Below, piece by piece: positions 14,891-17,374 of a stretch of DNA of 64,000 bases (the first letter of the stretch is position 1; each line of letters opens with the position of its first letter). The translations under genes and the position numbers were made by a program. The DNA is taken from assembly GCA_964578605.1 (NCBI GenBank), contig CAZODO010000017.1, positions 3,994-67,993 of the forward strand, given 5' to 3'. The stretch comes from an uncultured Verrucomicrobiota bacterium (GTDB taxonomy: Bacteria > Verrucomicrobiota > Verrucomicrobiia > Limisphaerales > SIBE01). The notes under the pieces were generated by a model. That model made no database searches, was not told the DNA's origin, and saw only the letters and a program-made list of their open reading frames with translations.

Positions 14891-15621
14891 AGAAGTATTT
14901 TGCAGAATACCACTACTCGATCAAACGCTGGGCTAAGCGTCATCAAATGGGCATCGATGACGCCGTGCTCGCCTTGCTGGATGAAGCTGACGGTCCGGAC
15001 CCAACCGAGACGATCAAGCAATCAGCGGCTGTTGCTGAATACAGAATATTAACCGGGGAAGGTGTCCACTATTTCGTAGAGTCTGACGAACTCGCGCGAA
15101 AGCTGATCGAGTTCGGAATCACATTTGACCCCCGCATTCTTGAAATCATTGCGGAGAATTACCCCCGTGGAATTATCCACACGTGCGGCAAACAAGCGAC
15201 GGCTGTGATGTTCGATTGGCATCCGGGCATTCTCATACTTTGTGAGAACGGCACTCTCTTCCACTCCTATCCAGTGAAGGAGAAAACCTCCCTTGAGCCT
15301 GGCTGTGATAGAGCGGTCAGATTGGTATTGGGGTTTGCTCTGTACGCGGCCTGTTTTCCCGATGCTGTAAAAGATGGCTTTCCCGAGTTTGCCAAGCACC
15401 CAAACCACTTTCGAAAATCTCGGTGTAGTGCTGTGTTCGTTGCACCCCAGATCGTCGACCGTAGTGGCCCTATTCCTCACTTTCGCCACGGGCATCCGCG
15501 GATCCTTCAATCGGAGCGGTATACACGAATGCGGTGGAAAGTGATCTGGGTTTCCGAGTGCTTCGTTAAGGGCCAGGTCAGGACGGTCGAAGAAAACGGC
15601 CAGGATCCATGCAATTCATAA
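14887..15621 (+). CDS. Hypothetical protein, AT-richer moron
   Basis: 244 aa; C-terminal PHFRHGHPR...IWVSECFVKG; overlaps both neighbours. Confidence 0.7.
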   Translation: MKKYFAEYHYSIKRWAKRHQMGIDDAVLALLDEADGPDPTETIKQSAAVAEYRILTGEGVHYFVESDELARKLIEFGITFDPRILEIIAENYPRGIIHTCGKQATAVMFDWHPGILILCENGTLFHSYPVKEKTSLEPGCDRAVRLVLGFALYAACFPDAVKDGFPEFAKHPNHFRKSRCSAVFVAPQIVDRSGPIPHFRHGHPRILQSERYTRMRWKVIWVSECFVKGQVRTVEENGQDPCNS

Positions 15622-17054
15622 AACCCATCCCTTTCACGGACGCCATCGACAAGCTCGGCCGCAAGTCCATCATCGGCTCCAGCCTGAACTCCGAGCAATG
15701 GTCCCGCGTGCCCTTGGCTCTGCGCGAGCGCGCGTTCTTCAGTGCCACCATTGAGTCCACCAGGTTCCTCCAGCGTGCCCGCGACAGCATCGGCGATTTT
15801 CTATCGGCTGCCCGCGAAGAAATCACCCTTCCAGACGGCTCCAAGACCACTGCTATCAAGACCGGCAGCCGGGCCGACTTCGTCAAGCAGACGCAGGATT
15901 TCGCCTATGCCGAAGGCATGGGCCCGATCGATCCCAAGCACGTCGGCACCATCCGTGACATCCGCACCGAAAAGCGCCTTGGCCTTATCTTCGACACCCA
16001 GGTCCGCCAGGCCCAGGATTACGGCTGGTGGAAGCAGGGCCAGGATCCCGCCGTCCTGGACGCCTACCCGGCCCAGCGCTTCATCCGCGAGCGGGAGGTC
16101 AAGCAGGAACGCGACTACCACCGTTTTCACGAAAACGAAGTTCAGTTGAAGAGCGACCTCGGATTCTGGAAGGCGCTGAACCGCGACTTCGGCGTCCCGT
16201 GGGGCCCGTGGGGTTGGGGCTGTGGCCACGACGTCGAGGACGTCGACCGCGAAGAAGCCGAACGTCTGGGCCTCATTGCGCCCGGTGAGCGCGCTAAACC
16301 TGTCGAGCAAGAGTTCAACGACGAACTCGAAGCCAGCGTCCGCGGCCTCGACGACGACATGCGCCGGAGTCTGGCTGATGCCTTCGGCGACCAGATCCAA
16401 ATTGACGGTGATAACATCCAATGGAAAGGTGGCACACATGAGCGAACCCAACCGCAAACACGAGTTGGTCGAAGTGAATCCAGACGGGAGCCTGACCAGG
16501 CATCCGATCTCGCCAGAAGAGTCAGCGAGGCTGCACGAGGAATTCTTGAAGGTTTTCGATCCGGAGACACTGGTGCCCCGCTCGCACCTCAAGTATCTCA
16601 AGGGGGAGCGGCAAGCCTCGGTGCCGTCGCCAACGGCCGCAAGCCCCTCTACCACGAAGAATTCTTCCCCGGAGAAGCCGAAGCCGTAGCCGAGCATCTC
16701 AGGTCCCGCCTTCCTCGATCTGTCCAGATCACGGCCAAAGAGAACCATCTCTACGCCTACCGTCCAGACGTGGTCCAGCGGGTCGTTGATGCAGCCCCCG
16801 ACGATTACCCTGGCGACTCCCTTTTCGAGAAGATTGAGCGTGCGACCCTGTCCGGCACCAACGGCCAACTCCTGGGCTACGGTGCCTGGACAATGCTCCA
16901 ACCAGGCCGCGTCCTGGTGACCATTTTCGACCCCGCCAAACGGCCTATCTTCGGCTTCTACTCCCTTCGCGAATCCGCCGAGCGCTACGCCATCGAGCGC
17001 ACCAAAGATTTCACTGACGCCTTCGGCCCCGGCTACACCTTCAAAATCTCATGA
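15609..17054 (+). CDS. MuF (gp30-like head morphogenesis) protein with C-terminal extension
   Basis: PFTDAI, RAFFSA, RLGLIFDTQVRQA, PWGPWGWGCGHDV align by eye to the MuF motifs; about 200 extra C-terminal residues. Confidence 0.8.
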   Translation: MQFIKPIPFTDAIDKLGRKSIIGSSLNSEQWSRVPLALRERAFFSATIESTRFLQRARDSIGDFLSAAREEITLPDGSKTTAIKTGSRADFVKQTQDFAYAEGMGPIDPKHVGTIRDIRTEKRLGLIFDTQVRQAQDYGWWKQGQDPAVLDAYPAQRFIREREVKQERDYHRFHENEVQLKSDLGFWKALNRDFGVPWGPWGWGCGHDVEDVDREEAERLGLIAPGERAKPVEQEFNDELEASVRGLDDDMRRSLADAFGDQIQIDGDNIQWKGGTHERTQPQTRVGRSESRREPDQASDLARRVSEAARGILEGFRSGDTGAPLAPQVSQGGAASLGAVANGRKPLYHEEFFPGEAEAVAEHLRSRLPRSVQITAKENHLYAYRPDVVQRVVDAAPDDYPGDSLFEKIERATLSGTNGQLLGYGAWTMLQPGRVLVTIFDPAKRPIFGFYSLRESAERYAIERTKDFTDAFGPGYTFKIS

Positions 17055-17374
17055 GAAAATCTTTAGTCGGACGGATCGGCAAGCAGAGGCCCTCTCACGA
17101 TTGGGAGTCCCGCGACTACGCTCTGCCGGTGATCCCGTGCTCAATGACGGTCTGCCCGGTCAACCGACATGGAAAATGCGCCTCCCCGGCCGCCATAAAG
17201 GTCGGAGCTGATGGGCGCTGTACGACGGGCCAAGACTTCAAGGCAAACCCTGTAGTCCAGTCCAATCAGCCCCCGCGGTGTAAGTGGTGTGGCGGCCTTA
17301 TCCGCCCGAACCCGGCAAACCTTTCCTGGGAGCATATCGGAGAGAAGCTGAGTCACGCCGCTGAACCGAGATGA
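17051..17374 (+). CDS. Cys-rich hypothetical protein
   Basis: ATGA-coupled to MuF; CSMTVC...C...C and CKWC. Confidence 0.6.
   Translation: MRKSLVGRIGKQRPSHDWESRDYALPVIPCSMTVCPVNRHGKCASPAAIKVGADGRCTTGQDFKANPVVQSNQPPRCKWCGGLIRPNPANLSWEHIGEKLSHAAEPR

Follow-up and report, generated by a model that had tools for sequence, protein, structure and literature searches.

The 481-aa ORF at positions 15609–17054 (+ strand; ORF listing of the window, i.e. the whole 64,000-nucleotide stretch of DNA analysed) is best, and rather probably, explained as encoding the sole MuF-family minor head protein of a Mu-like prophage, joined to a C-terminal cargo domain (C2) and packaged in the capsid as a minimal polyvalent protein. 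As part of the same explanation, the 107-aa ORF that follows would be an orphan insertion between the MuF gene and a PolX-like gene, unrelated to the MuF cargo. Phages are considered to use MuF-cargo fusions and polyvalent proteins for delivering ready-made proteins along with their DNA; to our knowledge, most such cargo domains lack a known activity. The protein was divided into three parts:

15609–16430, + strand: MuF-type N-module, residues 1–274 (from homolog identity, hhalign to Mu gp30, PHROG 220 and the fusion protein P0082)
16431–16595, + strand: charged linker, residues 275–329 (low pLDDT, pI 9.3, point of homolog divergence)
16596–17054, + strand: C2 cargo domain, residues 330–481 plus the stop codon (AF2 model and profile searches; an uncatalogued alpha/beta domain)

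The N-module is related to the Mu F protein

No Pfam or NCBIfam model matched residues 1–274 (Pfam even at E ≤ 1), and the curated MuF model PF04233 was reached neither above threshold nor at that relaxed limit. The 481-aa protein did match PHROG 220, 'minor head protein', at 8.5e-6, and when the profile of the N-module was aligned by hhalign to Mu gp30 (F), a probability of 95.1–95.8% was obtained (E 3e-8 to 7e-9), with query residues 55–229 aligning to Mu F residues 47–202 and the MuF core motifs common to both. Because of this alignment, the assignment of the N-module to the MuF superfamily holds at the profile level despite the Pfam and NCBIfam misses. The sequence-only reading had called a MuF domain here; that call is supported by PHROG 220 and by hhalign, not by the curated models. 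The N-module is 55–86% identical across hundreds of homologs, and P0082 is a natural fusion of a Portal_Mu domain with it. When PDB sequences were searched, the N-module profile gave chance-level matches only, and the whole 481-aa protein gave none. The structure model of the N-module was only moderately confident (pLDDT 55–90), and in a Foldseek search with the full-length model no named MuF protein was matched significantly (best E 0.65); the MuF identity therefore rests on sequence profiles. The likeness to Mu gp30 and SPP1 gp7 thus comprises an N-module that aligns to the Mu F core, with its motifs, in a Mu-like phage whose portal is of the Portal_Mu type. In contrast to those proteins, the query module is too divergent for PF04233 and its gene lies away from the portal.

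The charged linker proposed earlier was also recovered: residues 276–295 form a disordered stretch (pLDDT <50), and residues 301–315 are a conserved helix.

C2 is an autonomous domain found in several protein settings

The C-terminus of ∼170 aa that could not be assigned in the sequence-only reading proved to be a distinct, confidently folded domain covering the last ∼150–185 aa (AF2 pLDDT 96.2, pTM 0.88), still with no assignable family. The fold search that had been proposed for it revealed no neighbours in the PDB, and the significant structural neighbours were phage entries only; the best of them (E 4e-6, prob 1.0) carries an LPD-containing annotation. No PHROG assignment was found for C2, and a Pfam scan of 99 members of its family left C2 itself without any match. 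It matched no LPD family that Pfam includes (other LPDs never entered Pfam), and Pfam-based scans provided no match to known toxin families. Matches of the C2 profile to the designed repeats 'Cake' and 'Scone' among PDB sequences were judged a summed-repeat artefact, zero stretches passing on their own. Two proposed relationships were rejected, one to a divergent Mu F C-terminal domain (probability 0.5%) and the other to the zincin extensions described below.

Conserved across the C2 family are G343-x-K345-P, G419-x-LLGYG, F450 and R464-x-x-D467; the invariance of these motifs suggests a small-molecule/nucleotide-binding or catalytic pocket. C2 is a compact, sharp-edged and very confidently modelled cargo with a conserved K/Y/R/D and glycine-loop signature and no known fold relative. 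Being compact, sharply bounded and confidently modelled, it should be tractable for structure determination and functional tests.

A word-index search with the C-domain alone missed even known relatives, and an exhaustive profile search was used instead. This recovered 178 representative clusters, some within giant polyvalent proteins. Among 150 representatives, C2 occurred with this MuF module in 59, alone or as fragments in 50, and it was also internal in proteins of 2,013–4,140 aa. The canonical PF04233 MuF domain accompanied C2 in 9 of the 99 representatives scanned; C2 has thus been reused on two MuF subfamilies as well as inside giant polyvalent proteins. Polyvalent-protein Pfam domains (ddrB-ParB, LPD3, InPase, Kinase-PolyVal, Zeta_toxin) were present in three of the five multi-domain C2 carriers scanned, and C2 is internal in P0133, P0157, P0187 and P0204, and also in P0227 beside ddrB-ParB, LPD3, InPase, Kinase-PolyVal or Zeta_toxin domains. 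A scan of viral contigs with the C2 profile returned L064 as the sole locus. Given its confident model and its occurrence alone, with MuF and inside polyvalent proteins, C2 is an autonomous domain.

MuF joined to effectors delivered with DNA has been described for phage polyvalent proteins, together with 40 uncharacterised LPD domains (Iyer et al. 2017, PMC5512222). The present protein is alike in combining a MuF head-targeting module with an interchangeable domain, in that the giant proteins containing C2 carry, in some cases, ddrB-ParB, LPD3, InPase or Kinase-PolyVal, and in that the best structural neighbour of C2 is an LPD-annotated phage protein. It is unlike them in having two domains only, and in that C2 matches no Pfam-held LPD family.

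Cargoes are exchanged on the same MuF scaffold

All homologs have the N-module in common but diverge sharply at residue ∼274. Among the top 120 homologs, 42 had no extension, 34 and 23 carried extensions of two zincin types, 14 carried C2, three an ADP-ribosyltransferase (ART; PF03496, 2.4e-17, in P0018, P0042 and P0089) and one a HipA/kinase-like domain. The IMG/VR loci showed the same swapping pattern, plus forms of 905–1,076 aa, and extensions of 600–800 aa occur among those swapped. Altogether, at least eight unrelated extension classes were found at this junction. The C-terminal swapping that the sequence-only reading had suggested looking for is therefore present, recognised toxin/effector domains (ART) included, and the extension, whose invariance would have spoken against an effector, varies among homologs. 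As judged from these homologs, the MuF scaffold carries several cargoes that can replace one another, C2 among them.

This pattern bears on whether C2 might be a structural or assembly accessory of MuF, binding DNA ends, the portal or the capsid interior, rather than an effector. C2 occupies the same position as the C-terminal domain of Mu gp30, which may play such a part; its conserved residues include K, R and Y, which typically contact phosphate or nucleic acid; and it has no immunity-like partner. However, about a third of the close homologs have no extension and others carry enzymes in its place, so C2 is dispensable for the core role of MuF. Moreover, the PBECR-type C-domain of Mu F is unrelated to C2 (the 0.5% probability above), and C2 is also found alone or beside enzymatic domains in polyvalent proteins. 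An accessory role of this kind is therefore considered unlikely.

A functional analogy is offered by T4 Alt, a capsid-packaged ADP-ribosyltransferase that is injected into the host. Like Alt, the MuF-C2 protein would be packaged in the head and act on the host at injection, and ART siblings exist on the query's own MuF scaffold. The two are unlike in that there is no sequence relation between them, and in that Alt uses a capsid-targeting sequence where the query has a MuF module.

The 107-aa ORF does not co-vary with C2

The sequence-only reading had described a Cys-rich 107-aa ORF, ATGA-coupled behind the MuF gene, and had proposed it as the immunity partner of C2. The description was confirmed. 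The two genes concerned are:

17051–17374, + strand: 107-aa basic, six-Cys orphan ORF, with an ATGA overlap on both sides
17371–17904, + strand: minimal PolX-like nucleotidyltransferase gene closing the arm (DNA_pol_B_thumb 1.4e-14; PolX NCBIfam 2.8e-10)

The six Cys residues (positions 30, 35, 43, 57, 77 and 80) make it probable that the product binds zinc (zinc-ribbon-like). The stop codon of the 481-aa ORF and the start codon of the 107-aa ORF overlap in ATGA, but the latter is coupled in the same manner to the PolX-like gene; the overlap is thus not special to MuF and reflects the norm of the operon. Homologs of the PolX-like gene lie upstream of MuF in L006, L009, L016, L021, L022, L025 and L042.

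MuF polymorphic toxins of temperate phages have been defined as a family by their position immediately downstream of the portal (Jamet et al. 2017, PMC5576092). The corresponding reading would make C2 an antibacterial toxin that is set free from phage particles or along with them, the lysogen being protected by the 107-aa ORF. The temperate phage, N-terminal MuF, variable C-terminus and small downstream ORF (<150 aa) all fit this class (PMC5576092), and relatives of the query carry a bona fide toxin-class domain (ART). In addition, small overlapping ORFs do recur downstream of other C-types on the same scaffold: D0 or D3 behind C0, D1 behind C1 (in 8 of 12) and D7 behind C4. The query differs in that C2 is not a recognised toxin, its downstream ORF does not co-vary with it, and the gene is not beside the portal. 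In six independent C2-type phages (C2 identity to the query 34–64%), the downstream ORFs were unrelated, or none was present on the same strand. No homolog of the 107-aa ORF was found in 60 related loci; a single one was found among 5.8 billion proteins (P0269; 55% identity, 6/6 Cys kept), and it sits behind non-coding DNA and before a different gene, with no MuF-C2 gene preceding it. The immunity proposal thus fails, since the downstream ORFs do not co-vary with C2 and the lone homolog of the 107-aa ORF is not beside MuF. Further, C2 is often internal in giant proteins, N-terminal or alone, whereas the tip of a polymorphic toxin is expected at the extreme C-terminus. A toxin with a cognate immunity protein is hence regarded as quite improbable here.

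Displacement of the MuF gene from the portal is shared by a clade

In the window, the MuF gene lies ∼15 kb from the portal fragment and on the opposite strand, in agreement with what had been noted earlier. The features concerned are:

2–595, − strand: N-terminal part of a Mu-type portal, the gene running off the window (PF06074 6e-16; phmmer to the L007, L010 and Mu portals)
606–2438, − strand: large terminase subunit (weak Terminase_6N match; E=2e-249 to the L007 TerL-position gene)
13156–14638, + strand: GemA-like gene (13156–13704) and conserved 110-aa gene (14306–14638), a block that precedes MuF in 22–24 related loci
14887–15621, + strand: 244-aa gene overlapping the MuF start by 13 nt (its L008 homolog lies directly upstream of MuF, 2e-55)

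The Mu-like context in the window includes Phage_Mu_Gam (5e-30), AAA_22/TniB, a weak GemA match and Portal_Mu (6e-16). The gene in the transposase position has homologs in relatives; no DDE catalytic domain was itself detected. On the basis of its early genes and Mu-type portal, the host element can be classed as a Mu-like transposable prophage.

Distant relatives keep the order portal-MuF-pp1, and the N-module directly follows the Portal_Mu gene in L041, L047 and L048. When the post-portal slot, where the sequence-only reading had advised looking for a canonical MuF, was inspected in relatives, it was found closed up in 15 loci of the window's clade, the portal being followed directly by pp1. 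The idea that this ∼200-aa gene might be a hidden short form of MuF, or a homolog of Mu G, was rejected (0% probability of MuF relatedness). Each related locus gave one MuF match. In the cultured Akkermansia phage Chantilly, the only MuF-type gene sits between DnaB and TerS, and in the colinear genomes MuF begins the late block and precedes the terminase. Chantilly and a second cultured Akkermansia phage, Chambord (ON453895/ON453894), are relatives that share the relocated MuF. Judging from gene order, the displacement is a lineage trait of a Mu-like clade that includes cultured Akkermansia phages, and not a trait of this genome. The earlier suggestion of a second MuF copy goes against both the single MuF per related locus and the direct run of the clade's portal into pp1; in the genome studied, whose post-portal region is outside the window, a second copy is excluded only by analogy with these relatives. 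Since MuF lies away from the portal in the whole clade, annotation pipelines and MuF-toxin surveys relying on portal adjacency and the Pfam model will miss such genes.

The gene position, outside the head module, could also indicate that in this lineage the protein stays out of the virion and has a cytoplasmic early or middle role, e.g. in replication-transposition or regulation. Within the early arm, MuF consistently follows the GemA block, and the early-arm gene before it overlaps its start; in L004/L005, a copy consisting of the N-module only is flanked by a transposase homolog and an AAA ATPase. The L004/L005 element, however, was dropped as support for a transposition role because it is a scrambled remnant; a gene in the head protease position is present in it too. 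Moreover, the MuF core motifs are kept as in Mu F, relatives have the N-module right behind the portal or fused to it, and in colinear genomes MuF opens the late block. A cytoplasmic role is thus held to be highly unlikely. Nevertheless, as the MuF gene shares an operon with early genes and overlaps the one before it, its late expression is not assured; a promoter/terminator scan gave no signal over background dividing MuF from the early operon.

A proposed route for the MuF-C2 protein

The unusual position of the gene is inherited. Within this clade of Mu-like phages, MuF has left its place behind the portal and before pp1 for the early/late boundary that follows the GemA block; in the divergent-arm sub-group to which this prophage belongs, the relocated gene thereby comes to lie close to the early arm's tip, with the end of the prophage ∼1 kb away. 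For the preferred reading, that of a capsid-packaged MuF-C2 protein, the following sequence of events may be envisaged. As the homologs Mu F and SPP1 gp7 suggest, the MuF module would draw the protein into the procapsid, at the portal. The C2 cargo would then ride inside the head, enter the next host cell together with the DNA and act before phage gene expression, in host takeover or counter-defence. Packaging in the virion, injection and an effector role are all predicted by analogy with these systems. The more specific notion that C2 is a new fold, enzymatic or ligand-binding, which travels in the capsid on MuF or polyvalent scaffolds and is injected to disable host defence or signalling, is put forward as a tentative possibility. 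If true, C2 would represent a new family of virion-delivered counter-defence effectors with at least 178 sequence clusters.

The right end of the prophage

Beyond the PolX-like gene, the following features mark the right end of the prophage:

17942–18076, + strand: three direct copies of a CCTTTTCAAACTTT-type motif, candidate transposase-binding end repeats
18106–18180, − strand: tRNA-Val(CAC), the host feature nearest to the prophage on its right, with host-type genes coming next

Two of the repeats are exact 19-mers (0.03 expected by chance), and the third copy, of 14 nt, is at 17980. Metagenome contigs on the locus provided fragmentary coverage and no informative breakpoints. The prophage-host junction at tRNA-Val was also present in sludge run X1.

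Layout of the prophage end

The window takes in the right-hand side of a transposable prophage resembling Mu, and the late arm of this element runs leftward.

Prophage features and flanking host tRNA gene (coordinates, strand, description)
2-595, −: late arm, Mu-type portal, N-terminal 198 residues, running off the window (PF06074, 6e-16)
606-2438, −: late arm, large terminase (weak Terminase_6N match; E=2e-249 against the TerL-position gene of the related locus L007)
5501-6028, −: HTH repressor
from ~7.2 kb, +: early arm, with a ParB-like gene, a 696-aa HTH protein in the MuA position, an AAA_22/TniB-type ATPase, Gam (PF07352, 5e-30), a DnaA-C HTH protein and a weak GemA match
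15609-17054, +: 481-aa MuF-type ORF
17051-17374, +: 107-aa ORF, in ATGA overlap with the 481-aa ORF
17371-17904, +: terminal gene, minimal 177-aa PolX-like nucleotidyltransferase (DNA_pol_B_thumb, 1.4e-14)
17942, 17980 and 18056 (span 17942-18076): three direct repeats of a CCTTTTCAAACTTT(CTGCGGG)-type motif, located after the final prophage gene and before tRNA-Val
18106-18180: tRNA-Val, with host-type genes beyond

Both the 481-aa and the 107-aa ORFs were confirmed, as was the ATGA coupling between them described in the sequence-only reading; the PolX-like gene is coupled to the 107-aa ORF in the same way. This nucleotidyltransferase is conserved in many related Mu-like phages, normally upstream of MuF. 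The layout of a zinc-ribbon-like ORF followed by a terminal PolX-like gene may recall the terminal com-mom pair of Mu. The three direct repeats (0.03 matches expected by chance) are probably transposase-binding end repeats that mark the right end of the prophage, its left end lying off the window.

Identity of the N-terminal module and swapping of its extension

Searches of the 481-aa protein against NCBIfam and Pfam (the latter even at E≤1) gave no match, the only library signal being PHROG 220, 'minor head protein and DNA pilot' (8.5e-6, residues 4-230). For this reason, a profile of the N-terminal module (residues 1-274) was compared with Mu gp30 (F), taken from AF083977 as a reference. With hhalign this gave a 95.1% probability (E 3e-8) over ~150 columns, residues 66-229 aligning with 48-202 of Mu F, and 95.8% when repeated with an N-only alignment. 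Three independent observations agree: the homologue P0082 (808 aa) is a natural single-polypeptide fusion of a Portal_Mu domain (1.6e-72) and the same module; the coding region of the module directly follows a Portal_Mu gene in the divergent relatives L041, L047 and L048; and Akkermansia phages in culture have a gene, 37% identical, with the annotation 'head morphogenesis'. The MuF domain originally proposed is thereby borne out, and these comparisons indicate that the module is a genuine, divergent member of that family.

A database search returned 578 homologues, which show 55-86% identity over residues 1-274 and then diverge sharply. The C-terminal swapping that the sequence-only reading had suggested looking for was thus found, with several unrelated extension classes joined after residue 274.

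C-terminal extensions among the top 120 homologues
No extension (N-module only): 42
HExxH zincin type C0: 34
HExxH zincin type C1: 23
C2, the type of the query: 14
ADP-ribosyltransferase (PF03496, 2.4e-17): 3
HipA/kinase-like (weak): 1
Other singletons: 3

A remote relationship links C0 and C1 (92% probability). C2 is unrelated to either of them and to the C-terminal domain of Mu F (0.5% probability). The same classes occur in 47 IMG/VR loci, together with forms of 905-1,076 aa; a post-portal copy gave a weak match of PBECR3 nuclease type that stayed below threshold (27.4 bits; cut-off 30). The long forms (in L015, L021, L022 and L026), whose C-terminal regions of 630-780 aa have no Pfam match, are larger uncharacterised polyvalent proteins.

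The C2 cargo domain

An AlphaFold2 model of C2 (residues 330-481), built from 14 sequences only, showed an alpha/beta domain with a mean pLDDT of 96.2 and a pTM of 0.88; in the full-length model C2 is preceded by a conserved helix (301-315), and residues 276-295 are disordered. Foldseek, the comparison proposed for this part, found nothing similar among solved structures (best E 0.022, TM ≤0.26). No Pfam family matched C2 itself in 99 diverse members; the sequence-only reading had likewise been unable to assign this region. Significant matches in BFVD were a phage protein annotated as containing an LPD (large-polyvalent-protein-associated domain; E 4e-6, prob 1.0, TMq 0.47), an orphan from a giant virus and one other entry.

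When 1.84 billion representatives were searched exhaustively with an HMM, C2 was found in 178 clusters. Among the best 150 representatives it accompanies the query's MuF module in 59, stands alone or as fragments in 50, follows another N-region in 29, is internal in 7, lies at the N-terminus in 1, and is embedded in giants of 2,013-4,140 aa in 4. It occurs alongside ddrB-ParB, LPD3 or InPase domains in P0157 and P0187, and with Kinase-PolyVal and Zeta_toxin in P0227 (806 aa); a canonical PF04233 MuF domain was present in 9 of the 99 diverse members (best 6e-20). In a set of 105 representatives, with a median identity of 34% to the query, G343, K345, P346, G419, L422, G423, Y424, G425, V437, F450, R464 and D467 are conserved, a pattern compatible with a predicted binding or catalytic pocket.

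MuF has been described as a component of the head that is joined to effector domains delivered with the DNA, and many LPD domains as being of unknown function (Iyer et al., PMC5512222); the features of the query match these fusions and LPD proteins. MuF-cargo fusions, including those with unknown C-terminal extensions, are already described. What is new is the delineation of C2 as a family with no Pfam entry or PDB fold neighbour, spread over 178 clusters and reused across MuF subfamilies and giant polyvalent proteins. The 481-aa protein is probably a MuF-cargo protein that is packaged in the capsid and carries a new cargo domain; we infer that it would be packaged, injected and active as an effector. 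That C2 serves instead as a structural accessory of MuF is unlikely.

Displacement of MuF from the portal

The query's MuF subfamily lies away from the portal in every context examined; in 22-24 loci it comes after the GemA block and a 110-aa gene that is itself conserved. It is found near the early-arm tip, close to a contig end, in the window and in L015, L016, L018, L021, L022, L025, L026 and L028; 3.7-7 kb upstream of the portal in colinear genomes (L007, L017, L019, L023, L024, L027, L029, L031, L032 and others); and in a third layout in L010 and L020. The displacement noted from the sequence is real, and is a trait of the lineage.

Each related locus has one MuF match. In 15 loci of the window's clade the portal stop is overlapped by pp1, a conserved gene of ~200 aa, while the order is portal-MuF-pp1 in the distant relatives L041 and L047 and MuF-pp1 in L049, L053, L054, L056, L058, L060 and L064. 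Since pp1 follows MuF in distant relatives and the portal in the window's clade, the ancestral order was portal-MuF-pp1; in this clade MuF was moved out, and portal and pp1 were brought together. The derived state is seen in the complete Akkermansia phage Chantilly genome, where the sole MuF-type gene stands between DnaB and TerS and the portal is followed by a short gap and pp1. These orders speak against the second MuF copy once considered possible; in the window's own genome, where the 3′ side of the portal is off the window, a single copy is suggested by relatives as close as L007 (TerL against TerL, E=2e-249). The demonstration of a whole clade of Mu-like phages with MuF moved away from the portal is new. 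That the protein is a cytoplasmic early protein outside the virion is the least probable reading.

The pp1 family (L007 18952-19545 and 27 other loci; ~200-240 aa) always comes directly after the portal or MuF. The L007 copy has no Pfam match; profile comparison found pp1 unrelated to Mu F, G or I, with 0-0.9% probability for MuF, Mu G or any C-type, and this phage group probably uses it as a head-morphogenesis protein, so far uncharacterised. L004/L005 (P0030), on a contig of a Verrucomicrobiota MAG, is the scrambled remnant of a prophage among host genes; it is present in at least 22 contigs and has the order head-protease-position gene, transposase homologue, N-only MuF, AAA ATPase.

Small downstream ORFs

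The six independent C2-type loci are followed by the 107-aa ORF (window), by ORFs of 148, 98 and 95 aa, by a 67-aa frame that overlaps pp1 (L041) and, in one case, by no same-strand ORF; no similarity was found among these. The 107-aa ORF had no homologue in 60 related loci and one among 5.8 billion proteins, P0269, which is 55% identical with all six Cys conserved; on its 817-nt contig the 102 nt upstream encode no C2 end, and the next gene is non-PolX. The 107-aa ORF probably encodes a genuine orphan protein that is basic (pI 9.6) and binds zinc. With unrelated genes behind C2 and P0269 not behind C2, it is not tied to MuF-C2 as a cognate partner, and the immunity role first assigned to it falls away. 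MuF polymorphic toxins are defined by portal adjacency and a downstream immunity candidate (Jamet et al., PMC5576092), a definition that the query matches only in part; a toxin/immunity pair, as proposed in the sequence-only reading, is highly improbable here.

Recurrent overlapping small ORFs do follow the zincin-type cargoes, C0 being paired with families D0 or D3 and C1 with D1 (8/12), and another extension class, C4, with D7; common descent of those phages could account for some of this recurrence. The D0/D3 ORFs after C0 fusions (L031-L039, L043, L046) and the D1 ORFs after C1 fusions (L007, L018, L019, L023, L024, L029, L042, L045), all of 62-96 aa, are stronger cognate-partner candidates (inhibitor or immunity) than the 107-aa ORF.

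A 153-aa ORF (13710-14171) with weak, below-threshold matches to ricin-type lectin/agglutinin C-terminal domains (3.8e-4) is an accessory gene specific to the strain, with no homologue in the 60 related loci. GTCCCAT-type units repeated every 9 nt form arrays at gene junctions of the early arm (13680-13713 and 14651-14675), and the motif recurs in reverse orientation just upstream of the sole 107-aa-ORF homologue, on an unrelated contig (L062 1-100); these arrays could act as a regulatory iteron or represent a mobile repeat of small size.
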